Notes: generated by a model not told the origin, from the sequence alone. 64,000 nt of DNA from Nitrospina sp. (GCA_018702695.1 JABIYR010000158.1:2541-66540); one strand, 5' to 3'. Positions 49,070 to 61,813 are shown, counted from the first letter of the stretch. Program-made: numbers and translations.

Positions 49070-50599
49070 TCAGAACCAACTTTCTCGGTCTAAAGAGCGA
49101 TATTGGATTGCTTCTGCCACATGTTCTGACTGCACCGATTCGCATTCGGCCAGATCGGCGATGGTGCGGGCGACTTTTAGGATGCGGTCATGCGCTCTTG
49201 CGCTGAGGCCGAGTTTGTCGATGGCGAGTGCCATGATTTTTTTGGAGGCTTCATCGAGCTGGCAAAAGGTTTTCAGTTGGTGGGGATTCATATTAGCGTT
49301 GAAATTGTTTTCATCTTCTTTGTGAAAGCGTTTTAGTTGAATCGTTCGGGCCTGTTCGACTCGGTTGGCGATAGATTGGGAGCGTTCTCCGCCGGATTCA
49401 GACGATAGGTCTTTGTATTCCAGTGCTGGCACTTCGATATGTAAATCGATGCGGTCGAGCAGGGGGCCGGATATTTTCCCGACATATTTTTTGATGGTCA
49501 TTGGCGTGCATCCGCATTCGCGTTTAGGGTCGAACCGGTAACCACAGGGGCAGGGGTTCATCGCCGCGACTAGCATCAGGTTTGCCGGATAGGTGATGGA
49601 ACCCGCGGCGCGTGAGATGGAGACGGCACCGTCTTCTAGAGGTTGACGCAATACTTCCAATACATTTCTTTTGAATTCGGGCAATTCATCGAGAAATAGA
49701 ACGCCGTTATGCGCCATCGACACTTCTCCCGGCATGGGCACGCGCCCGCCGCCGATCAGCCCAGCATCGGAGATGGTGTGATGCGGGGAACGAAAGGGGC
49801 GTGAACTCAATAACCCTTTTTTCAGTTGACCGAGCACGCTGTGAATTTTGGTGGTGGTGATAGCCTCCCCCTGAGTCATGGAGGGTAAAATAGTCGGGAT
49901 GCGTTTCGCTAGCATCGACTTACCGCTACCCGGTGGGCCGATAAGTAGGATATTGTGCCCGCCAGAGGCGGCGATCTCTCAGGCGCGTTTGACATGGTGC
50001 TGGCCTTTGACATCGGTGAAATCTAATTCATGTTTGTTGGCAGAGGCATCTTGGCTTTTGGGTTTGGGGCTGACAGGTTGCAGTGCCAGATTACCGCATA
50101 AAAACTCAAGCGCCTGAGGCAAGGTGTCTATGGGATAAACGGGAATGCCTTCGATGATAGCAACCTCGGCGGCATTTTCACTGGGCAGAAGCACTCCCTC
50201 CATGCCATTTTCATGGGCCATAGCGGTGATAGACAATGCGCCACGAATGGGTTTGACTCGACCATCGAGAGAGAGTTCACCGAGAATCACCATTTTCTTC
50301 AGGCGATCATTGTCGATCATGCCACTGGCGCAAAGTATACCTATTGCGATGGGCAGGTCGAAAGCAGAGCCTTCTTTGCGAATATCGGCAGGTGCTAAGT
50401 TGATAGTGATTTTTCTTACTGGCAGGGCCAGTTGTGTGTTGCGGATGGCGGCACTGACACGATCACTGCTTTCTTTAACGGCGGCATCGGGCAGACCCAC
50501 GATAGACATGCCGGGTAGCCCTTGTGCTAGGTTGACTTCGACTTCAACGGGGTAACCGTTTATGCCTAAAACCGCTCCACTATGAACGAGTGCGACCAA
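49070..50599 (-). pseudogene. comM: comM/yifB Mg-chelatase-like AAA+ ATPase interrupted by one in-frame TGA
   Basis: The two tracked ORFs (49979..50599 and 49070..49915) are in the same frame. My translation across the junction reads ...[38 protein letters not shown], with the stop codon at 49979-49981 where homologues have Leu. Confidence 0.8.
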
Positions 50600-50727: not shown

Positions 50728-52581
50728 TCACGGTTGCTCAACTTGCTGTAAAAGGGAGGTTAAGACCTGAGCTTGTTGCGCGGTGGGGTTCAGCTTGAGC
50801 GCCGCTTTGAGGTGAATGCTGGCTTGTTGTGTGTTGTCTTTCAACTCCAATAGCAGTTTTGCCAGGTTGAAGCGTGCTTCCAGCGACTTGGGATTCTGTT
50901 TGACTGCTTTCTCAAACTGGATGAGTGCGGGTTCAAATTGCTGTGACTGAATCAGTTGGATACCCGCCTGATTGTGGGCGCGGGCTTTATCTGCATAAAA
51001 TTGCTGGGCTGGGCTATTACCTTGGATTCTATACAGCGCATCGGCTCGATCAAACTGCTGGCTGGCCTGAATAAATTTTCTCAGGTTGCCATAGAGGCTG
51101 GCAAGGTTGAAATGCGAATCTGGATCTGTGGGTTTAATGCGTATGGCTTCTTTAAAATTTTTCTCGGCCTCGGTGTATTGTCCCAGACTTTTGTGGGCGA
51201 TGCCTAAATTCTGGTGAACGTCATAAAGGTTAGGGTTGATCTTTAATAATGCCTGTAAGGGGGGGATGGCGTTGGCATAATCTTCTGCCATCAGATAGTG
51301 GATGCTCAGGGTTTTCCCGACACTCAATTTATAGGGAGATTTTTTGAAGGTGTCGGCCCAGAGTGTCGAAGGGGATGCGTAAACCTGGTTTCTCTTAACC
51401 ACCAGCGCTGAGAATGTTGTGCAGATAAGAATTAGAACTAAAGCTCCCCATAAAGGACGGTGTTTTTCTTGTTTATCTTTGAACCCTACCAGATAGAGAA
51501 CGACCGCAAAGAACAGGCATAATCCAAATGAGGGAATATACATATTACGCTCACTAAATAAATGGGTGCGAGGCATGAAAGAATTGGTCGGTGCGATGGT
51601 CAAAGGAAACCACAGGATACAGAATGTCAAAATAGAACTTTTGATGTAGAATTTTTTGCAAGCCAGAAAAACACAGGTCAGCACGATGGCGATGGAAGCC
51701 AGAAGAGAACCCCATGACACCTGTGTGAGGAAATCGTATTCAAAATTCAGGTTGATGGGGAACAGAAAAAGTTTGAGAGGGTGCTTGAGCAGGTCGAGCT
51801 GGACCAGCCCTAATGTGAAATTGATTTTTTGAAATAGACTTTCAATTGCCGTAAAAACGTTTGGCGAAAGAAAAAAAGCGGCTCCGGCCAGAGCAGGAAA
51901 AGTGAGATAAATTTTGAGTCGTGAACGAAACGGTGACCACTGTTGTCCCTGCATAAAACATAGATCATAAATGAAAATCATGACTGGCAAGGTGATGGCT
52001 ATTTCTTTACTCAGGACGGCGAGGAAAAAACTTATCAGCGAACAGAGGTAGATAATAAAACTAAGAAATTTCCCGGTAAAATCTTTCAAGCTGGCGAGAA
52101 TAAAAAGCAATAAAGACAAAAAATAAAAGAATCCGGCCAAGCCACCGGGCCTTCCTGAAATATAGGTGACGGTTTCGGTTTGAATAGGGTGAAGGCCAAA
52201 CAGCAGGGTTGTGGTCAAGGCAATGTTCAGCGCCGCGTCTTCCCCCCATGATGTGCCTTTTGCAAGGGTCAGCCGAGTGATGAAAAAAACCAGAAACGTC
52301 GAGCCGATATGAATGATGATATTGAATAAATGGTAGCCGAAAGGGTTTTCTTGCCCCCAATGGTAGTTCAGGGCAAAGCTCAAAAGGTTGATATGACGAT
52401 AGGCAAGATGGGACAGGTTGGTGTAATGGCTTAAATTATCTATATAATAGGTGCCATAAATATGTCTTTCGTCGTCGCTCTGAAAAGGCGTGTTTAACCC
52501 GTTGGCATAGATGAGGAAAATGATTCCGGCAAGGCAAACAAAAATGCTGAGAATATTTAACCGACTGAAGTGAGGTTTCAC
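50728..52581 (-). CDS. TMTC-like membrane protein: polytopic GT-C-like N-terminal domain plus C-terminal TPR repeats
   Basis: 617 aa with about 11 TM helices over ~400 aa and the early loop motif FQSDDERHI. About 5 TPR repeats follow (YANAIPPLQALLKINPN..., AEKNFKEAIRIKP...). Confidence 0.7.
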   Translation of the reverse strand: MKPHFSRLNILSIFVCLAGIIFLIYANGLNTPFQSDDERHIYGTYYIDNLSHYTNLSHLAYRHINLLSFALNYHWGQENPFGYHLFNIIIHIGSTFLVFFITRLTLAKGTSWGEDAALNIALTTTLLFGLHPIQTETVTYISGRPGGLAGFFYFLSLLLFILASLKDFTGKFLSFIIYLCSLISFFLAVLSKEIAITLPVMIFIYDLCFMQGQQWSPFRSRLKIYLTFPALAGAAFFLSPNVFTAIESLFQKINFTLGLVQLDLLKHPLKLFLFPINLNFEYDFLTQVSWGSLLASIAIVLTCVFLACKKFYIKSSILTFCILWFPLTIAPTNSFMPRTHLFSERNMYIPSFGLCLFFAVVLYLVGFKDKQEKHRPLWGALVLILICTTFSALVVKRNQVYASPSTLWADTFKKSPYKLSVGKTLSIHYLMAEDYANAIPPLQALLKINPNLYDVHQNLGIAHKSLGQYTEAEKNFKEAIRIKPTDPDSHFNLASLYGNLRKFIQASQQFDRADALYRIQGNSPAQQFYADKARAHNQAGIQLIQSQQFEPALIQFEKAVKQNPKSLEARFNLAKLLLELKDNTQQASIHLKAALKLNPTAQQAQVLTSLLQQVEQP

Positions 52582-52695
52582 AGGTTTTCTCGGTTTAAAA
52601 TAATGCTTGGAGTGACAAGCTCGGGCAAATAAAACGGCTTGTTATTTGGATTGCAGGCTTGATTTGTATACGAAATCAAGTCAAACTCATGGGGC

Positions 52696-54261
52696 GTGAT
52701 ATTTTTTAATGTAAGCCACGCTGAGTTTCGTTTAAACAATATCAAAAATTTCTCCTTTAGCTTAACACACCTCTTGACCCGTCCTTCTACAACTTTAAAG
52801 CGTTCTATTTGGTCAGCGCTATTTTGTTGGAGCGCAGTTTCTATTATTCTGCACGCCTTTTATATCCAGACTCCTTTTGTGAGTATGGAGTATGTTTTTG
52901 CGCAGGCCACACAAAACCTTCTCAGCTCTGAAAATAATTTGGCCCATTACTGGTCCATGCAAGCCAACCCCTTGGGTTATGTCTGGGTCTCCACGCTGAT
53001 TCACTTTCTTCTGGGAGAGCCGAGTGGCTTCTGGAGTTATCGACTTGCATCGCTCTTAGGTTTAGTGGCGATTTTGGGTGCTGGGGCTATGGTTGCTTCC
53101 ACTCTAAAGTCAGACTGCCGACGAGCGTTTCATTTATGGTGCGCGTTGGTGACGTTTTCTCCCTTGATATGGGTGTTCTCGGGGCGGGCGACCGCAGATG
53201 TTTTGCCAATGGGTTTGTTAGGGTTGAGCTTGGCTCTGGTCTATAAAAATGAAGCCAGAACCAGTGGCTTGGCTTCAATATTGTTTTTATTTGCATCCAT
53301 TGTTAAATACCACGCTTTGTTGATGGCCCCCGGGTTCATCTATATTTTCTGGTATCAGAGTCAGAATAATGGAGAGTGGATCAAGAGATGCGGACAGTTT
53401 TTTCTATTGCCTCTATTGGGGTTCCTTTTATATTTGTGGGGTATATACAATCAGTACGGTTTTTTTCTAGTTGCAGAGACTCACTCGCAAACTCATAAAT
53501 TCGAACCGGCTAATTTCCTCAAAACATTTTCTTTGTATGCCGGTTATCTGGGCATATTGCTGGGGCCTGTTGCCTGGGTCAGCCTTCTCAATGTCCGCAA
53601 AAACTGGCCTGGAAAATGGCTGATTCTCATCGGATTTGGGCTGGGGTTCGGGTTCTGGGTGGACTCATTAGAAACCATGGGGGAGATGAACTATGGGCCT
53701 TTTGACTGGATACTCAATCGCTCGATGTTATTTTTGGTGAAAAGTATGGGAGCCATTGTTTTTGGATTTCTTATTTTGGATTGCATTGTAGAAGCCAGAA
53801 AACATAAGAATGCGGTGGCGGGGTTTGTTTTGACCGTATGCATTCCTTTTTTGTTAGTTTGTTCTGCCAGTCGTCCTGCTCAGCGATATCTGATTTTCCT
53901 AATCCCTTTGATTTTCTATTATCTGGTTTTTTATCGCATGCAGGGGCACAAAATTTATAGGGTGGTTCTTGGTTGGGGCACAGTGGGGATTTTTGTCTTA
54001 GCCAATTTATTTGCGGTAAATTATCAAGTTGCGCAAGCTCGTGCCGCCGATAATATGGCTCACTGGCTGATTGAAAATAAGTTGATCGAAGAAACTCTAC
54101 CGGGGAGCATTAATACCCATAGTGGGCAATATTTTATCCCATTTATAACCACCCAAAAAACGCGGACGGTTTTGCAGGGTTCGGGCGATATTGCAACGGC
54201 CTTGCATGCGGAAAAAGTGGTGGTTTTTGGCAGAACTCTGAAAACTTATTACCTGAATTAG
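52696..54261 (+). CDS. GT-C fold membrane glycosyltransferase (family 39/83-like); start codon uncertain
   Basis: 521-aa polytopic membrane ORF from GTG, with an ArnT/PMT_2-like hydrophobic pattern. It is divergent from the TPR-GT-C gene. Confidence 0.55.
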   Translation: MIFFNVSHAEFRLNNIKNFSFSLTHLLTRPSTTLKRSIWSALFCWSAVSIILHAFYIQTPFVSMEYVFAQATQNLLSSENNLAHYWSMQANPLGYVWVSTLIHFLLGEPSGFWSYRLASLLGLVAILGAGAMVASTLKSDCRRAFHLWCALVTFSPLIWVFSGRATADVLPMGLLGLSLALVYKNEARTSGLASILFLFASIVKYHALLMAPGFIYIFWYQSQNNGEWIKRCGQFFLLPLLGFLLYLWGIYNQYGFFLVAETHSQTHKFEPANFLKTFSLYAGYLGILLGPVAWVSLLNVRKNWPGKWLILIGFGLGFGFWVDSLETMGEMNYGPFDWILNRSMLFLVKSMGAIVFGFLILDCIVEARKHKNAVAGFVLTVCIPFLLVCSASRPAQRYLIFLIPLIFYYLVFYRMQGHKIYRVVLGWGTVGIFVLANLFAVNYQVAQARAADNMAHWLIENKLIEETLPGSINTHSGQYFIPFITTQKTRTVLQGSGDIATALHAEKVVVFGRTLKTYYLN

Positions 54262-54444: not shown

Positions 54445-56697
54445 ATGCCAATAAAACGTCCTAAACATTTGCTGGTGATCGGGGGAGGGGTGTTCCAAGT
54501 TCCTGCTATCAAGACTGCCAAATCGATGGGCTTAAAAGTTGCGGTGACGGATTACAACCCGGAAGCAGAAGGGATGCTTTTGGCCGATTACCCGGTAGAG
54601 GTCAGCACTCGCAATATCAACCTGACCGTTAATATCGCTAAGCAGTTTCATCAAACCTGTCCTCTCGATGGGGTGATAACGGTGGGGACCGATGCCTCTC
54701 AAACTGTCGCGGCAGTTGCTAATGCTTTGAACCTGCCGGGAATTCCCTTTGAAGTGGCTGAACGAGCCACCGATAAAATCAAGATGCGTCAGGTGTTGAA
54801 AGAGAAGGGCGTGCCCGTTCCCGAATTTCGTCCTATCTGGACATTGGACGAAGGACGGTCAGCAGTCAATGAGATGACCCTGCCTCTGGTTATAAAACCC
54901 TGCGATAATATGGGCGCACGCGGGGTGAGAAAAATCGAAAGTCTGGACGATCTGATCCCTGCTTTTCGTGAGGCGAAAGAAGCTTCCATCAGCGGAAAAT
55001 TAATTCTTGAGTCGTTCATGGATGGGCCAGAGTTGAGTTTGGATGCATTGGTGCATGAGGACGATATTCATATTACGGGAGTGGCAGATCGAATCATCGA
55101 ACGCGCGCCTTATTTTGTTGAGATCGGACACACGCTCCCTTCAGCTTTGCCAGCCGATCAACAGGCGGGGGCCGTTGCCGTTTTCAAGCAAGCCATAATT
55201 GCATTGGGAATAGATATTGGGGCGGCGAAGGGGGATATCAAGATAACGCCTGATGGCCCTAAAATTGTTGAGATTGCCGCTCGTTTGAGTGGCGGCTGGA
55301 TGTCTGCTTATACCTACCCTCTCTCTACCGGAGTCAATCTTTACAAAGCGGCTATTCAGATTGCTTTGGGTGAAGAGCCAGGCGATTTGACCGCCAAAAC
55401 CTCTTTGGTTGCGGTCGAGCGGTCGTTATTGCCAACGCCGGGAAAAATCCTCTCTATTAGAGGGGTGGAAGAGGCCCGCAAGATCAAAGGGGTCAAAGAA
55501 ATTATTCTTATGAAAGAAGCCGGGGATATGGCAGAAGAACCCCGCAGTAATATGGGCAAAGTGGGTTATGTCATCACGGTGGGAAAAACTCGCGCCGAAG
55601 CCCTACGCATCAATGACCTGGCTCATCAAACTTTGAAAATCGAAATTGGTGCTTCCAGTGATTTGACCTGGGACATCATCCGTAATAATGCGCGCAAGAA
55701 ATTTTATATTGCCTGCAAAGCCTGCACGGTTTGCGATGGGTTGGAATGCGCGGGCAAAGTCCCCGGCATAGGTGGCATCGGGTCAGGCAGTGCCTTCACC
55801 GAAAACCTGACGGCATTGGCTCGTTATCAGGTCAACCTGAGAACCATTCATAACGTGAAAGCCCCCGATACTTCCGTGGAGTTGTTTGGGCACAAACTGG
55901 CTTTGCCAGTTCTGGCGGCACCGATCACCGGTATGGAAACTAATTTAGCAGGCGGTATGGATGAAAGGGCGTACGCCGATGCCATTCTGGATGGTTGTCT
56001 GGAAAGCGGTACGCTGGGAATGGTTGGCGATGGAGCCAGCCCGCAAAAATATTTGATCGGCTTGGAAGCCATTAAAAAACGCGGTGGGTTGGGAATTCCT
56101 ATCTTCAAGCCAAGGGAATACAACCTCGATATCATCAAGCGGTTCAAAGCCGCTGAAGATGCAGGGGCTCTTGCTGTTGGCATTGACATCGATGCGGCTT
56201 CATTTAAAACCATGACGCTCAAAGGTCAGGCCGTTGGCCCTAAAAGTATCTCTGAATTGCAGGAGTTGAAATCGCATTTGAAAGTGCCTTTTATATTAAA
56301 AGGCATTATGAATGCGGAGTCGGCGTTGGCGGCGATAGAAGCCGGAGCCGATGCCATTGTTGTTTCTAATCATGGCGGAAGAGTGATGGACCATATGCCT
56401 GGAACCGCAGAAGTGCTTCCTGAAATTGTCCACGCTGTGGCAGGGCGAGTTAAAGTGCTTGTTGACGGGGGCGTTCGTGAAGGCGTTGACATACTCAAAA
56501 TGTTAGCATTGGGAGCCGATGCAGTCATGATTGGTAGACCTGTTTGCATTGCGGCGTTTGGGGCTGGGCAGGAAGGGGTTTCCTTTTATTTACGGGAGAA
56601 AATGAACGAGTTGAAGAAAGCCATGATTCTTACAGGCTGTGGCTCCATCCCGAATATTGATCCTTCCATTATTTTCCGTAAAAAGGAGGATCGATAA
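54445..56697 (+). CDS. fusion protein: ATP-grasp carboxylate ligase domain (aa ~1-402) plus FMN-dependent alpha-hydroxy-acid dehydrogenase/oxidase domain (aa ~405-750)
   Basis: The N-terminal half has the pre-ATP-grasp Rossmann-like start HLLVIGGG and the ATP-grasp core PLVIKPCDNMGARGV...ESFMDGPELSLDALV...VEIAARLSGG. The linker is CKACTVCDGLEC. The C-terminal half has the FMN_dh signature VVSNHGGRVMD, DGGVREGVDILKMLALGADAVMIGRP. Confidence 0.8.
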   Translation: MPIKRPKHLLVIGGGVFQVPAIKTAKSMGLKVAVTDYNPEAEGMLLADYPVEVSTRNINLTVNIAKQFHQTCPLDGVITVGTDASQTVAAVANALNLPGIPFEVAERATDKIKMRQVLKEKGVPVPEFRPIWTLDEGRSAVNEMTLPLVIKPCDNMGARGVRKIESLDDLIPAFREAKEASISGKLILESFMDGPELSLDALVHEDDIHITGVADRIIERAPYFVEIGHTLPSALPADQQAGAVAVFKQAIIALGIDIGAAKGDIKITPDGPKIVEIAARLSGGWMSAYTYPLSTGVNLYKAAIQIALGEEPGDLTAKTSLVAVERSLLPTPGKILSIRGVEEARKIKGVKEIILMKEAGDMAEEPRSNMGKVGYVITVGKTRAEALRINDLAHQTLKIEIGASSDLTWDIIRNNARKKFYIACKACTVCDGLECAGKVPGIGGIGSGSAFTENLTALARYQVNLRTIHNVKAPDTSVELFGHKLALPVLAAPITGMETNLAGGMDERAYADAILDGCLESGTLGMVGDGASPQKYLIGLEAIKKRGGLGIPIFKPREYNLDIIKRFKAAEDAGALAVGIDIDAASFKTMTLKGQAVGPKSISELQELKSHLKVPFILKGIMNAESALAAIEAGADAIVVSNHGGRVMDHMPGTAEVLPEIVHAVAGRVKVLVDGGVREGVDILKMLALGADAVMIGRPVCIAAFGAGQEGVSFYLREKMNELKKAMILTGCGSIPNIDPSIIFRKKEDR

Positions 56698-57489
56698 ATG
56701 AAATCAAAAAAAACAGCGTTGAAGGTCGTACCGGTTAAACCCGGTCAAAACCTGCGGTCGGAACTCTTGTTATTGAAAAAACAGTTTGGCGCTTGCGGGT
56801 TAAAACTATCTACGGAAGATGCCGCCATGAGCCTAGAGCAGATTGCTTTTTGGGCAGAGTCCGCAGGCAATGCCCTACCGGCGATGGTGAAAATAGGCGG
56901 CCCGAATGCCCGGAACGATATCAAGCAACTCCTTCCTATGCATATTGATGGATTGATTGCCCCTATGGTGGAATCGCCTTATGGCCTAGAAAATTTTATT
57001 GCCGCTGTGCGTGATTTCACCACCCCGATGCAGTTTGAGCGATTGAAAAAGCAGATTAATATTGAAACGGAAACAGCGGTTCGGCAGTTAGATTCGATTC
57101 TTTCAGCTCCAGAAGCAAAATACATTGATGAGATCACCATTGGCTGTAGTGACCTGTCAGAGTCGATGAAGCAACCGCGGTGGGATGCAAGCTTTATGGC
57201 TCTGGTTGTGCAGGTGGTTAAAAAAATTCAGAAAAATAATATTTCCGTTTCAGTCGGCGGGGGCATCACCCCTGATACCATAGAAGGGTTGTTGGAACAA
57301 GTTCGGCCCGATAAGTTCAATACGCGGGTTATTACCTTTAAGGTGGAGCCAGACCGAGACTACCGCTTAGCGGTTCAATCGGCACTGCGCTTTGAAATAC
57401 TGATGCTTGAGCACGATTCCTGCCATAATTTTATCTCCCGCGATGAAGAAAAATTCCGCATTAAAGAGTTGAAAAAAAGATTGAAATAA
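56698..57489 (+). CDS. HpcH/HpaI aldolase / citrate-lyase-beta (CitE)-like TIM-barrel lyase
   Basis: 263 aa, with its ATG immediately after the upstream TAA. Blocks VKIGGPNARNDIKQLLPMHIDGLIAPMVESPYGLENF and INIETETAVRQLDSIL...ITIGCSDLSESM fit the HpcH/CitE pattern (V-R/K-I/V-N...D-G-hh-h-P-K/M-V-E; IET; G-x-x-DL). Confidence 0.6.
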   Translation: MKSKKTALKVVPVKPGQNLRSELLLLKKQFGACGLKLSTEDAAMSLEQIAFWAESAGNALPAMVKIGGPNARNDIKQLLPMHIDGLIAPMVESPYGLENFIAAVRDFTTPMQFERLKKQINIETETAVRQLDSILSAPEAKYIDEITIGCSDLSESMKQPRWDASFMALVVQVVKKIQKNNISVSVGGGITPDTIEGLLEQVRPDKFNTRVITFKVEPDRDYRLAVQSALRFEILMLEHDSCHNFISRDEEKFRIKELKKRLK

Positions 57490-57560: not shown

Positions 57561-57588
57561 TTGACAAAAAAATGAAATGTCTTACAAT
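57561..57588 (+). promoter_or_regulatory. near-consensus sigma70 promoter for aclBA
   Basis: TTGACA (57561-57566), 16-nt spacer, TACAAT (57583-57588). It lies ~145 nt upstream of the aclB ATG, which is preceded by AGGAG. Confidence 0.55.
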
Positions 57589-57732
57589 ACAACCCTCTAA
57601 TTACCATAAAGCTATATGAACATGAGGTTGACTTGAATTATGTTTGGTGAACCTCCTTTAAAAGTTATTGATTTTTAAGCTTCTCACACCCTAAACCCAT
57701 TTCAATTTAATTTTGGAAGGCAGGAGAAAACG

Positions 57733-59001
57733 ATGCAGATAACTGGCATGCTTTGGGGGCGTAAATTATTGGACCTAGTAGAATTTCCCCATTCTGAAGT
57801 CCGGGGTCCTGAACTCAGTGTTGATGAGATCAAAGACATGATCAAACGACACGGTATGGTATTCATTAAACCTTTGTTTAAAGGCGGCGTGGGTAAAAAA
57901 GGCAAGGCTGGTTTGATGGGTCGGGTCGATAATATTACTGATGCTCTGAAAGAAAAAGAACGTCTTTATTTTGCGGAACATGTAGATGGATTCAGTAAGG
58001 TCAAGTCTGATGGCGTGACCTATGAAGGGGCTGTTCCTGCTGAGTACGAAGTCTATTTTTCTATTTCAGAAAGCACCGAACATCGTTGTCCAATAATGAC
58101 CGTCACTCATCATGGTGGGGTGGATATTGAAGAATTGCCGGAAGATAAAATTAAGGTCGTGCCTTTTGATTCCTTAACCGGGCTGAAAGCGTATCACGTC
58201 TCGAACGCATTGATGGAACTGGGTGCGCCTCCTCAGGTGATCAGCCCATTGGTTCAGAATCTGCCTAAACTTTGGGATCTGTACAATAACTACGGCATGT
58301 TGATGCTGGAGTTGAACCCCATTCGCATGCAACCTGGCAAAGGCGGACGCTTGACACCCGTAGCCTGTGACTTCAAATGTGCATTCGATCAAGATGATCC
58401 GGCTTGGAAGCGTTTGCATCTGCCGGAGCATCTATTTGCTTCTGACTATTCAGAGTTTGAGCAGGAGATCAATCAGCTTCGCACCTATCAAGGGCAGAGT
58501 GACGTATTTGTTATGAATGATAAGGGAACCATCACCGCTCCGACTTTTGGCGGCGGTGCCAACGCCATGGTTACTGAATTGTTGGGTGAAGATGCAACCA
58601 TCTCTTCTGATTTTGGTGGCAACCCCCCTTATGAAAAGATGCATGATATCTCCAGAATCAGTTTTAAATATTGGTTGCCTCAGTCCAATGTGCTGTTCAT
58701 CATTGGCGGTAAAGCTAATAATACGGATATTTACGAAACATTCCGAGCCATGGGTGATGGGTTGCGTGACTTCTTTCAGACACACGGGCCAACTCCTTTG
58801 TTTGTCGTGGTGGGACGAGGCGGTCCCAATGTCATCCGCGGAATGAATTATTTGCAGGAGATTCTCGATTCTTTAGGGCTTCCTTACCGTTTCTTTGGGC
58901 ACGATAGTGCGATGTCTGAAGTCATCAATTACACTCTGGCTGTGAACGAGTGGATGAATAACGGTGGTAAGGATGAGATTAAAGCAAAACTTAAAATTTG
59001 A
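57733..59001 (+). CDS. aclB: ATP-citrate lyase beta (small) subunit, SucC-like ATP-grasp
   Basis: 422 aa. It has the ATP-grasp_2 signature FIKPLFKGGVGKKGKAGLMG and a C-terminal citrate-binding/ligase-CoA-like region. It is directly followed by the large subunit. Confidence 0.85.
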   Translation: MQITGMLWGRKLLDLVEFPHSEVRGPELSVDEIKDMIKRHGMVFIKPLFKGGVGKKGKAGLMGRVDNITDALKEKERLYFAEHVDGFSKVKSDGVTYEGAVPAEYEVYFSISESTEHRCPIMTVTHHGGVDIEELPEDKIKVVPFDSLTGLKAYHVSNALMELGAPPQVISPLVQNLPKLWDLYNNYGMLMLELNPIRMQPGKGGRLTPVACDFKCAFDQDDPAWKRLHLPEHLFASDYSEFEQEINQLRTYQGQSDVFVMNDKGTITAPTFGGGANAMVTELLGEDATISSDFGGNPPYEKMHDISRISFKYWLPQSNVLFIIGGKANNTDIYETFRAMGDGLRDFFQTHGPTPLFVVVGRGGPNVIRGMNYLQEILDSLGLPYRFFGHDSAMSEVINYTLAVNEWMNNGGKDEIKAKLKI

Positions 59002-59098: not shown

Positions 59099-61813
59099 AT
59101 GCATAAGCAAGGTGTGGAAAAATTCCCCTTTTACTGCGGCATTAATTCCTTGTCTGAACTGGCAACTAAAGATGACAGGGTCGTGGTTTTGAATATCCTG
59201 GGTAAAGAAAGCTCAGGCGTAACCCCCATCAGTAATGATTATTCTGGTGGCAATATTGTGTTTGGAACCGGGCCGGGTAAATCCGGTAAATCATTGGTGA
59301 CAAAATCGGGGAAGATTCCGGTTTATAACTCAATCAAAGAAGGTCTCGAAGCCGGTCATAAATTTAATACGGTTGTGGTCTATCTTCCACCTTCCGGGGT
59401 GAAAGATGGTATCGCTGAAGCCGTCCGTGAAAATCCGGATCTGACCAAAGCTATTATTCTTACGGAGAAAGTGTCGGTCAAAGATTCTCGTGTTATGCGA
59501 GCGATTTGTCAGGCCAATGGCGTTGACTTGTTCGGCGGCAATTGTCTGGGACTGGCAGATGCTTGGAACCACGTTCGCCTTGGCGGCGCGCTGGGCGGCA
59601 ATGCACCGGAAGAGTCTCTGGTAAAGGGAACGGTCGCATTGTTCTCCAACTCGGGCAACTTCACCACCACTATCGCGGTTTATCTGACCACCGCAGGCTG
59701 GGGCACGACGACCTCGGTTTCCAGTGGTAAAGACGTTTATATTCAATACGGTGCCAAAGAGTTCTTGCACGCGTTTGATAACGATGAACGTTCAAAAGTG
59801 GCGGTCATGTACAGCGAACCGGGCGGATATTATGAACGCGGACTGAAATCTGATAAACCTATTGTTGCCTGTGTCGTAGGGCGTTGGAAAGCAAGGTTGA
59901 GCAAGGCTTGTGGCCATGCTGGGTCCTTGGCGGGTTCTGGCGACGATGCTTTGGCGAAAGAACAATGGTTCATGGATTATTTTGGCGTGGACGGTGTTTA
60001 CACCCCACAAAAACCCATTTTCTCGAAGAAGGGTGCGTTGGTGACCAACATCGCGCATATTCCGGAAGCGGTTTCCAAAGTCATGGAACTCAATGGCCTG
60101 AAGCCTGATTTTGAACCAAAAGGAACCTTGTCCTTAAAAAGCTGGTTCGGCAATAATCAGGGGCTTGCTTTGCCGCCTGAACTAGATATTCCGACTGTTG
60201 AAGCCGCAAGTCCTTATAACGAGCAGATTGAAGCTCTGAACAAAATGGTTGGCGTTCAACATCGTCGAGAAAACCTCAAGGATGCCAGTGGCGCGTCCAT
60301 GATGGACCCTAAAACGCAGGTTTCTAAAATCCATAACACTTCGATTCTCGACGCTTCTGTCAAGTCTTTTGAATCCAATTTGGTCTTTGCTTTGACACGG
60401 GTTTACCCCTGTGACTATGGCGAAAAAATTGCCAATCTTGTGCTGAATATGTATGTCAATCAGCACGGTCAGGCGACCCTAGCGGCGGCTCAAGCGGCGC
60501 GAGAAAATGGCAATTCTCCCAATACGGTTGTAGCGTCTGCGGTGGCCATTTGTGGGAAAAAAATGGTGCAAAAGGCGATGGACTCATCGAGAGCACTTCT
60601 GGAGTTGTTCCAGTTTAGCAAGATGGACGACCCCTGCGAGAAGTTTGATTACTCCGAGCAACTGAAAGAGGCGGCTAACCATAAGGCTGTACTGCTAGCA
60701 GACGGTGAAGACCCTTGCGCTGAAAAACTTGCCGCATGTCTCAATAAAGCCGGACACTCTGTATTCGTCCAGTTTGTGCAAGACTTGGCAAAAGCCAATG
60801 GTGGCAAACTTTCTACCGATGCGCTGTTCGCCGCGGTATGGGTGACTCTTGGTTGGAGTGCGTTGCGAGGTAAAAAGATTTCTAAAGATACTCTCGTACG
60901 TTTGCCTTGGTACTCACGCATCTATAGCACCATCGTCGGTGTTTCTGCTCCGGCTGAACGACATACCGAAGATAGTATTGCCGGTGTTAAGCTGGAAGAG
61001 TTGATTCCCAATTATAGTTTCACGAAAACGGCATTTGTCACATTGTTGGGGCGTCAGCCTTCCGAGTCAGAGCTTTACGAGTTCCAGGTACTGCTCGGAC
61101 TGATTATCACCAACGGGCCGGGCACGATCTCAGCTCAGGGTTGTAAAGGCGCAGTCAGTGCAGATGGGCCAGAACAGCCACAGCGGGTTCAAGTGAACAA
61201 AGCTTTTATCGGCTTTCTCACACATACCGGTTTCGCACATGGCGGAAACGGTTATGAAGCGGCGGCTTTCTTGTTGGAAAACTTTAAAGATAAGGGCCTC
61301 AAAAATGCCGCTGATACCGGGCATGGGCTAGATCTTGATGCCATGGCATTAGAAGTGGCGAATAAGTATTCTGATTATAAAAAGAAAGAGAAAGCCATTG
61401 GCAATCTTGATTATGCCAAATTGCCTTGTGTTAACCACCCTGTGTTTAAAGGGAAAGATGTTAACTACGATCCACGAGAAGTTTTTGTACGAGACCTGTT
61501 TAAAGAAAAAGGCATCAATAATGTGTTCCTTGATTTTTATCACAGCCTTGTCGAAGCTTTGTTTAAAACTAAAGTCAGCAAAAATGTTTATTGCGTAAAC
61601 ATTGACGCGGTCATTGCGGTCATTCTGCTCAAAGTGGTCTGGTCTGACTTCAGTGGTGGCAACATGAAAGAAGAGGATATTGAGTCTGCTAGTTTTGCAA
61701 CCTTCTTGTTTGGCAGGATGATAGGTTGTGCGGCAGAAATTGATGACCACACTTCTCGTGGTAAAAATATGGATACTCGAACCCCGGCCAGCAAAGTTCG
61801 CTGGGTGGGTTGA
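59099..61813 (+). CDS. aclA: ATP-citrate lyase alpha (large) subunit, unusually long: SucD-like CoA-binding/phosphohistidine domain, ~300-aa extra region, then citrate-synthase-like citryl-CoA lyase domain
   Basis: 904 aa, RBS GGAGG. Phosphohistidine loop is ACGHAGSLAGSG (His273). CS-like catalytic blocks are GFAHGGNG (aa ~711-717) and VNHPVFKGKDVNYDPRE (aa ~778-794), plus EIDDH near the C-terminus. Confidence 0.85.
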   Translation: MHKQGVEKFPFYCGINSLSELATKDDRVVVLNILGKESSGVTPISNDYSGGNIVFGTGPGKSGKSLVTKSGKIPVYNSIKEGLEAGHKFNTVVVYLPPSGVKDGIAEAVRENPDLTKAIILTEKVSVKDSRVMRAICQANGVDLFGGNCLGLADAWNHVRLGGALGGNAPEESLVKGTVALFSNSGNFTTTIAVYLTTAGWGTTTSVSSGKDVYIQYGAKEFLHAFDNDERSKVAVMYSEPGGYYERGLKSDKPIVACVVGRWKARLSKACGHAGSLAGSGDDALAKEQWFMDYFGVDGVYTPQKPIFSKKGALVTNIAHIPEAVSKVMELNGLKPDFEPKGTLSLKSWFGNNQGLALPPELDIPTVEAASPYNEQIEALNKMVGVQHRRENLKDASGASMMDPKTQVSKIHNTSILDASVKSFESNLVFALTRVYPCDYGEKIANLVLNMYVNQHGQATLAAAQAARENGNSPNTVVASAVAICGKKMVQKAMDSSRALLELFQFSKMDDPCEKFDYSEQLKEAANHKAVLLADGEDPCAEKLAACLNKAGHSVFVQFVQDLAKANGGKLSTDALFAAVWVTLGWSALRGKKISKDTLVRLPWYSRIYSTIVGVSAPAERHTEDSIAGVKLEELIPNYSFTKTAFVTLLGRQPSESELYEFQVLLGLIITNGPGTISAQGCKGAVSADGPEQPQRVQVNKAFIGFLTHTGFAHGGNGYEAAAFLLENFKDKGLKNAADTGHGLDLDAMALEVANKYSDYKKKEKAIGNLDYAKLPCVNHPVFKGKDVNYDPREVFVRDLFKEKGINNVFLDFYHSLVEALFKTKVSKNVYCVNIDAVIAVILLKVVWSDFSGGNMKEEDIESASFATFLFGRMIGCAAEIDDHTSRGKNMDTRTPASKVRWVG

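Follow-up and report, generated by a model that had tools for sequence, protein, structure and literature searches.

ATP-grasp enzymes of the L-amino-acid-ligase (LAL) type activate a carboxylate by forming an acyl-phosphate and then couple it to an amine or, possibly, to a hydroxyl group. The alpha-hydroxy-acid oxidases and dehydrogenases that depend on flavin mononucleotide (FMN), such as LOX, HAO1, Hmo and MftD, share an FMN-binding triosephosphate isomerase (TIM) barrel, an SNHGGR segment and a Lys/His/Arg core. The class II pyruvate aldolases HpaI, HpcH and YfaU, together with the citrate synthase SbnG, likewise have a TIM barrel, with PMVES and IGxxDLS motifs and Glu/Asp metal ligands. 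Here we describe a two-gene module that is assembled from these known superfamilies and is itself uncharacterised. It occupies positions 54445-57489 of a 64,000-nucleotide stretch of Nitrospina sp. DNA (GCA_018702695.1, JABIYR010000158.1:2541-66540), referred to below as the window, and consists of an open reading frame (ORF) in which an ATP-grasp domain is fused to an FMN_dh domain, followed by a smaller gene, ORF2, with an aldolase-like fold. Genes resembling aclB and aclA, for ATP-citrate lyase (ACL), lie directly downstream.

An earlier, sequence-only reading of the window had stated that no characterised pathway is known to combine these domains, and our searches agree with it. No NCBIfam model reaches its cutoff, and the literature that we found on a characterised relative holds only the mention of a "hypothetical protein", LA2659 of Leptospira interrogans ("FMN-dependent; ATP-grasp fold"), which is ~2-3.6-fold up on macrophage contact (PMC2964297).

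A widespread fusion gene and its partner

Pfam places both an ATP-grasp and an FMN_dh domain on the 750-residue ORF, as had been read from the sequence, and full-length homologues with 73-92% identity occur across the genera of Nitrospinota, 'Ca. Nitrohelix' and 'Ca. Nitronauta' among them. When 1.84 billion representative proteins were searched exhaustively, further full-length fusions came to light at 37-56% identity; by cluster look-ups and a profile search, the distant fusions were placed in Spirochaetota (Leptospira, Leptospiraceae, Turneriella and many metagenome-assembled genomes) and in Hydrogenedentota. Taken together, the homologues from these two phyla span 37-60% identity. A total of 791 proteins match the fusion profile at E <= 1e-50, and conservation of the fusion across the phylum (66-93% identity) is on par with that of ACL (72-95%). 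Since full-length homologues are widespread across Nitrospinota, Spirochaetota and Hydrogenedentota, we regard the fusion ORF as genuine. Stand-alone ATP-grasp (~400 residues) and FMN_dh (~340 residues) relatives do exist, and an assembly or frameshift artefact that merged two such genes had been named beforehand as what would undo the claim. Such an artefact is scarcely conceivable, being contradicted by hundreds of independent fusions of 737-763 residues whose junction region is invariant in many assemblies and phyla, and by copies on complete or megabase-scale contigs, complete chromosomes among them; on these comparative data we ruled it out.

The two genes of the module are tightly coupled. 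As first noted from the sequence, the TAA stop of the fusion abuts the ATG of ORF2 (TAAATG at 56695-56700), and an AGGAGG lies ~8 nucleotides 5' of the ORF2 start. To survey the partner gene, one genome per species, 185,579 species in all, was scanned with two peptide patterns derived from the ORF2 family. The scan gave 58 loci, ~49 of them labelled Nitrospina or Nitrospinota and ~9 labelled only "bacterium" or "uncultured bacterium", eight of which stand at 36-46% identity; no locus in these genomes came from a named phylum other than Nitrospinota. ORF2 adjoins the fusion in every one of the 58 informative loci, that is, those with enough flank, so that the neighbourhood is conserved and the two-gene module proposed from the window stands. 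The fusion comes first in 51 loci, and ORF2 comes first in seven loci of a distant lineage without a phylum label. Because the adjacency survives both this reversal of gene order and identity down to ~37%, it provides strong evidence that the fusion and ORF2 are a real functional pair.

In Spirochaetota and Hydrogenedentota, the fusion is a solo gene, and its spirochaete loci have unrelated neighbours, with neither ORF2 nor ACL nearby. For instance, two related spirochaete loci (L005 5784-7682 and L147 4927-6855) have the fusion and mnmG (gidA) as divergently oriented neighbours, and in a Leptospira locus (L004) the start of the fusion overlaps the end of mnmA. Both arrangements probably represent coincidental housekeeping synteny.

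Table 1. Features of the module and of the adjoining aclBA region, in window coordinates.
Feature	Position	Strand	Description
Fusion ORF	54445-56697	+	750 aa, read from the sequence
Fusion, N-terminal half (aa 1-405)	54445..55659	+	Predicted L-amino-acid-ligase-type ATP-grasp with pre-ATP-grasp, ATP-grasp and LAL_C2 subdomains (Pfam, phmmer, Foldseek)
Fusion, C-terminal half (aa 406-750 and stop codon)	55660..56697	+	Cys4-motif FMN-dependent alpha-hydroxy-acid dehydrogenase TIM barrel (Pfam FMN_dh, PDB matches)
Cys4 motif CKACTVCDGLEC	55714..55749	+	C-x2-C-x2-C-D-G-x2-C (C424/C427/C430/C435); subfamily signature, putative metal site
SNHGGR catalytic signature	56365..56382	+	S641-R646, with His643 as base and carboxylate-binding Arg646; read in the sequence and aligned to the LOX/HAO1 catalytic segment
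ORF2	56698-57489	+	263 aa; divergent TIM barrel of predicted class II divalent-metal HpcH/HpaI-type pyruvate-aldolase fold (Pfam, profile against PDB, AF2, Foldseek, synteny)
Sigma-70-type promoter of aclBA	57561..57588	+	TTGACA-16-TACAAT, 11/12 consensus matches; downstream edge of the module
aclB-like gene	57733-59001		422 aa, beta-like subunit
aclA-like gene	59099-61813		904 aa, alpha-like subunit

Domains and catalytic residues

The N-terminal half of the fusion is predicted to be an LAL-type ATP-grasp domain. Over residues ~5-401, Pfam finds ATPgrasp_N, ATP-grasp_4 (49.7 bits, cutoff 27), ATP-grasp_3 (45.5, cutoff 23.2) and LAL_C2 (66.6, cutoff 29.4, residues 329-401), and thus both the ATP-grasp fold and the LAL-specific C-terminal subdomain that mark the family. 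Its best match in the PDB is the LAL BL00235 (3VOT; phmmer E = 7.5e-35), on which the model of this half superposes with a target template-modelling (TM) score of 0.86-0.88 (Foldseek). Throughout Nitrospinota and Spirochaetota, K151, E189, E276 and R280 do not vary, and the ATP- and Mg-binding residues expected of an LAL, namely a central-sheet Lys, a hinge Glu and an E-x-x-x-R Mg segment, are all present. The half scores far below the cutoffs of the BacD and DdaF equivalog models of NCBIfam. Its best curated match is PRK02186 (149 bits, below the model cutoff), an ATP-grasp fused to an argininosuccinate-lyase-like domain. Many ATP-grasp relatives with 40-47% identity to this half (P0272-P0310) carry a conserved C-terminal extension of ~140 residues, which has no Pfam match and contains the motifs DW-G-R and FW-A-L-[RK]-G-x2-QGG. 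We considered whether this extension might be FMN_dh-like and rejected the idea, as it represents a separate domain unrelated to FMN_dh.

For the C-terminal half, Pfam reports FMN_dh with 230.3 bits (cutoff 24.9; E = 4.4e-68), and the SNHGGR segment, which lies exactly where it had been claimed, as does the cysteine motif (Table 1), is invariant from S641 to R646. Matches in the PDB are LOX, HAO1 and Hmo (4-hydroxymandelate oxidase), at ~30% identity and with a TM score of ~0.77 to Hmo. The residues K619, H643 and R646 are invariant in Nitrospinota and in the distant fusions. In a profile alignment to HAO1 and LOX whose confidence is low at these sites, the equivalents of the HAO1 tyrosines Y26 and Y132 were not found conserved; the Y26 position falls in a VPG(M/I)GG loop and the Y132 position in an IPF(I)KP segment. 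With the Lys/His/Arg core kept and the usual substrate tyrosines not, the redox core looks retained and the substrate pocket appears to be different. The specific equivalog models fail on this half by a wide distance (LldD, 131.5 bits against a cutoff of 550; LOX, 113.1 against 645.5; MftD, 115.2 against 470.85), and stand-alone relatives with the same cysteine motif likewise miss all three cutoffs.

The four cysteines had been described as a linker at the junction of the two domains, a description that does not hold. Stand-alone FMN_dh homologues of ~340 residues begin at the boundary of the fusion's C-terminal half and carry the motif at residues ~14-22; because the same motif opens these unfused enzymes, it is no linker, and we rejected it as a linker-specific feature. 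Judged from the alignments, C-x2-C-x2-C-[DN]-G-x2-C marks the N-terminus of a large FMN_dh subfamily that is uncharacterised and for which neither Pfam nor NCBIfam has a specific model, and the four cysteines of the motif are invariant in Nitrospinota, in the distant fusions and in the stand-alone proteins. Relative to LOX, HAO1, Hmo and MftD, the flavin half is thus distinguished by an added N-terminal helix with this motif as well as by the apparent absence of the two tyrosines. The cysteines form a putative metal site, and their spacing is as close to that of the structural Zn(Cys)4 site in medium-chain alcohol dehydrogenases (C-x2-C-x2-C-x7-C) as to the ferredoxin-type C-x2-C-x2-C. The alcohol dehydrogenase site also has cysteines at i, i+3 and i+6 and a fourth nearby, although the fourth follows after 4 residues here and after 7 there, and the protein context is another. 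Stand-alone members of the subfamily are encoded by strict anaerobes (for example, Romboutsia, Megasphaera and Desulfovibrionaceae), which makes a role as oxidase unlikely. One further protein (P0340, 557 residues) fuses a HAD-phosphatase to a Cys4-motif FMN_dh, which hints that some subfamily members may use dephosphorylated hydroxy acids derived from small phospho-hydroxy acids.

According to its structural model, ORF2 is a divergent protein of class II pyruvate-aldolase fold in which the metal ligands are kept. The Pfam family HpcH_HpaI is reached with a marginal score (28.8 bits, cutoff 25), a profile search against the PDB retrieves HpaI and YfaU (E ~2e-5) with E123 and D152 aligned to metal ligands, and the AlphaFold2 (AF2) model, with a predicted local distance difference test (pLDDT) score of 91, matches HpaI, HpcH, YfaU and SbnG at a Foldseek probability of 1.0, a TM score of ~0.58 and 19-20% identity. 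Fold and family therefore both point to HpcH/HpaI, the Pfam score being marginal. E123 and D152, which correspond to the metal ligands E149 and D175 of E. coli HpaI, are invariant in 24 homologues, and the 24-sequence alignment contains many invariant polar residues, including the PMVES and IGxxDLS motifs common to HpaI. K65 and R72 are invariant in the strand-loop region corresponding to the catalytic Arg70 of HpaI, a correspondence at the level of alignment and not of residue-by-residue superposition; in HpaI, Arg70 polarises the pyruvate carbonyl. Apart from its low identity and TM score, ORF2 differs from the described aldolases and SbnG in that strand 7 is followed by an invariant S-x-G-G-G loop and strand 8 by an N-T-R motif; these two elements may accommodate a phosphate-bearing substrate.

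ORF2 had been read as either an HpcH/HpaI aldolase or a citrate-lyase beta-type lyase. The first alternative agrees with Pfam, profile and structure, although the HpaI equivalog model itself gives only 18 bits against a cutoff of 369. The second is not favoured, because pyruvate aldolases rank ahead of acyl-CoA lyases: malyl-CoA lyase and RipC appear at Foldseek ranks 35-42 (E ~1e-6), after more than 30 HpaI/HpcH-type matches (E 1e-9 to 1e-7), and no CitE family is found among the Pfam or NCBIfam results for ORF2.

Proposed chemistry, rival explanations and genomic context

On balance, we think it probable that the pair is a self-contained unit whose three activities would act in sequence on one small 2-hydroxy- or 2-oxo-acid building block, serving a specialised biosynthesis and not the reductive form of the tricarboxylic acid cycle (rTCA). 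In the order that we infer, the ATP-grasp half would use ATP to ligate an amino or hydroxy acid through an acyl-phosphate, the flavin half would carry out an FMN-dependent dehydrogenation of the C-alpha adjoining a free carboxylate, and ORF2 would make or cleave, in a metal-dependent manner, a C-C bond in the corresponding 2-oxo acid. Rather than an intermediate of the rTCA cycle, the most likely product would be a specialised metabolite or a sugar-acid modification of the cell envelope.

Neighbouring genes in the more divergent lineages give a possible direction for this chemistry. In four loci of the lineage without a phylum label, a cytidylyltransferase::PseG-like gene lies directly upstream of ORF2, its first part matched by CTP_transf_3/KdsB-like models (E = 4.7e-15) and its second by TIGR03590 (PseG-like, E = 1e-12); the two of these loci with enough downstream flank also have, downstream, an MptE-like gene that we take to be Maf-type. 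Similarly, two loci among those with the most divergent ORF2 (L055 and L056), one labelled Nitrospinota and the other only "uncultured bacterium", have a PseG-like GT-B gene upstream of the fusion, and L055 has a sugar-nucleotide epimerase/dehydratase as well. These contexts weakly suggest sugar-acid (ulosonic or nonulosonic) or glycoconjugate chemistry, which would suit the formation of 3-deoxy-2-ulosonic acids from pyruvate by an aldolase and their amidation or acylation by a ligase.

In a sediment lineage (L062 1168-7890), five genes precede the pair, encoding an NTP_transf_3::3-dehydroquinate-synthase-like fusion protein, an SDR, a PfkB kinase, a CDP-alcohol phosphatidyltransferase and a CTP_transf_3::PseG-like fusion protein; as a set, they resemble a cluster for cyclitol-phosphate or sugar-acid activation.

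The position of the module had led the sequence-only reading to link it to citrate, oxaloacetate and acetyl-CoA metabolism. The pair would then serve ACL and the rTCA cycle as an accessory that, together with aclBA, converts C2-C6 organic acids (citrate, oxaloacetate, acetyl-CoA, glyoxylate or pyruvate), and the pair does stand immediately 5' of aclBA in 34 of 44 informative loci, with a fusion conserved as strongly as ACL. In addition, SbnG citrate synthase and malyl-CoA lyase are among the structural neighbours of ORF2, and the unusual divergence of Nitrospinota ACL, already noted for Nitrospina gracilis (PMC3578206), makes unusual helpers conceivable. We nevertheless consider this explanation highly improbable. 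The promoter at 57561 had been proposed as separate from the module, which agrees with a near-consensus TTGACA-16-TACAAT in the spacer between ORF2 and aclB; its hexamers are kept in 25 of 28 Nitrospinota spacers, whereas the surrounding leader diverges. Over the promoter and the ~145-nucleotide leader of aclBA (window 57561-57740), only the -35 and -10 elements and an AGGAG ribosome-binding site are conserved, and Rfam gave no match that would point to a conserved RNA element, either in this leader or around the module. Furthermore, inserts of 0.7-6.7 kb displace ACL in six of the 44 loci, and ACL is absent from four others with at least 3 kb of flank, including two Nitrospinota loci (L044 and L045) where ORF2 is directly followed by GT2 and HEAT-repeat genes that elsewhere in the phylum lie beyond ACL. 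The pair is also found without ACL beside it in the lineage without a phylum label, the spirochaete fusions, widespread as they are, have no ACL in their vicinity, the scan of 185,579 species genomes for ORF2 reached no named phylum besides Nitrospinota, and the best matches of ORF2 are pyruvate aldolases, not CitE-type acyl-CoA lyases. The separate promoter, the displaced or absent ACL and the ACL-less spirochaetes thus argue against membership of the acl operon, in terms of both predicted co-transcription and co-occurrence. Outside Nitrospinota synteny, the metabolic link finds no support, and we rejected an ACL-linked pathway on comparative grounds. The comparison of promoters and gene orders shows positions 54445-57489 to be independent of aclBA, and the adjacency looks like inherited Nitrospinota gene order and not like a shared pathway.

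A simpler catabolic role deserves comparison with the proposed biosynthetic unit. In the salvage of small 2-hydroxy acids, the FMN domain would be a lactate or glycolate dehydrogenase, ORF2 would act on glyoxylate and pyruvate (4-hydroxy-2-oxoglutarate-type), and the ATP-grasp domain would trap the product as an amide. The closest solved relatives of the C-terminal half are indeed lactate, glycolate and mandelate oxidases, the phosphatase fusion P0340 recalls the pairing of phosphoglycolate phosphatase with glycolate oxidase, and the stand-alone enzymes, common in fermentative anaerobes, need no partner. However, the flavin half falls far short of the equivalog cutoffs for LldD, LOX and MftD, the low-confidence alignment shows no conservation of the two substrate-binding tyrosines, and no transporter, regulator or other catabolic gene recurs near stand-alone Cys4-FMN_dh genes in 80 metagenome loci. 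Salvage also gives no reason for the obligatory fusion to an ATP-grasp domain, and we consider it unlikely. An equally slim chance attaches to a more specific form of the biosynthetic reading, in which the fusion would found a new "ligate-then-oxidise" enzyme class. An amino or 2-hydroxy acid attached to a carboxylate would be dehydrogenated at C-alpha by the Cys4 flavin domain to a 2-oxoacyl or imine product, hydrolysis of the imine would yield a primary amide and a 2-oxo acid, and the aldolase-like partner in Nitrospinota would handle the 2-oxo acid, possibly building a sugar acid of the 3-deoxy-2-ulosonic type from pyruvate instead of phosphoenolpyruvate.

Several observations weigh against a self-contained biosynthetic unit. 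The analysis identified no substrate for the pair, and the counterpart in ORF2 of HpaI's catalytic Arg70 is tentative. Sugar-nucleotide genes accompany the module in minor lineages only and are absent from mainstream Nitrospinota loci and from Spirochaetota, while the adjacency of ACL in 34 of the 44 informative loci leaves room for a lineage-specific functional tie. In the AF2 model of the fusion, both catalytic domains are confident (mean pLDDT 87), although the inter-domain geometry is uncertain (predicted TM score 0.58) and residues 423-445, the Cys segment, have pLDDT < 50. Furthermore, 73 of the 80 stand-alone Cys4-FMN_dh loci have no ATP-grasp or ORF2 nearby, so that a Cys4-FMN_dh can act on a substrate that is free, and the steps may follow another order. 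Around these 80 stand-alone genes, no family recurs in more than ~5 loci, and by eye the neighbours are unrelated housekeeping genes.

Other features of the surrounding region are recorded here in their own right. In some Nitrospinaceae, a gene for a 1878-residue adhesin-like repeat protein (DUF7507, DUF11, CARDB) stands between ORF2 and aclB (L037 9197-14833, also L039). The ACL of the window is of the divergent Nitrospina type, and the citryl-CoA-lyase-like C-terminus of its alpha-like subunit is weakly scored by curated models. Upstream of the module, window positions 50728-54261 encode two large multi-pass membrane proteins, of 617 residues with C-terminal TPR repeats and of 521 residues with no Pfam match, which by eye only resemble GT-C-type glycosyltransferases; the gene for the 521-residue protein keeps its place upstream of the fusion only in close relatives (L007, L012 and L013). 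Farther upstream, on the minus strand, a ComM/YifB-like gene of the Mg-chelatase family (49070-50599) has an in-frame TGA at 49979-49981, just before an intact Walker-A motif. Its homologues in two other loci (L001 and L003) are intact at 508-510 residues, and the TGA could be the mark of a pseudogene, a sequencing error or recoding.

Significance and comparison with known systems

Despite its generic annotation, the fusion is among the most conserved proteins common to Nitrospinota, the main marine nitrite oxidisers, and it occurs throughout Spirochaetota, including pathogenic Leptospira; close relatives of the Cys4-FMN_dh subfamily are found on human-gut metagenome contigs. The interest of the module therefore lies in the breadth and conservation of the fusion, not in its link to ACL. 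Assigning a reaction would annotate hundreds to thousands of genes and could reveal new flavin and ATP-grasp chemistry, and recognising the ACL adjacency as synteny guards against a misleading "rTCA accessory" annotation.

Among described enzymes, the LALs BL00235 (3VOT), RizA (4WD3) and BacD (3VMM) share with the N-terminal half the three-subdomain fold, including LAL_C2, and the ATP/Mg-binding residues; the fusion half is only 24-25% identical to them and, in contrast, is joined to a flavoenzyme. PRK02186 offers a likeness of another kind, as there too the partner fused to the ligase could act on the product of ligation. In CoaBC (Dfp), the phosphopantothenoylcysteine synthetase/decarboxylase, a nucleotide-dependent amide ligase is combined with an FMN enzyme that oxidises the newly attached unit. 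By analogy, the fusion may follow the same logic of ligating and then oxidising, with ligase and flavoenzyme on one polypeptide; the folds of CoaBC (CoaB ligase and HFCD flavoprotein) are unrelated, and the likeness is one of logic only. In the imine route considered above, the release of a primary amide and a 2-oxo acid would be the flavin-based counterpart of a nitrogen transfer by ligase plus lyase, as suggested by the related fusions of ATP-grasp to argininosuccinate-lyase-like domains.

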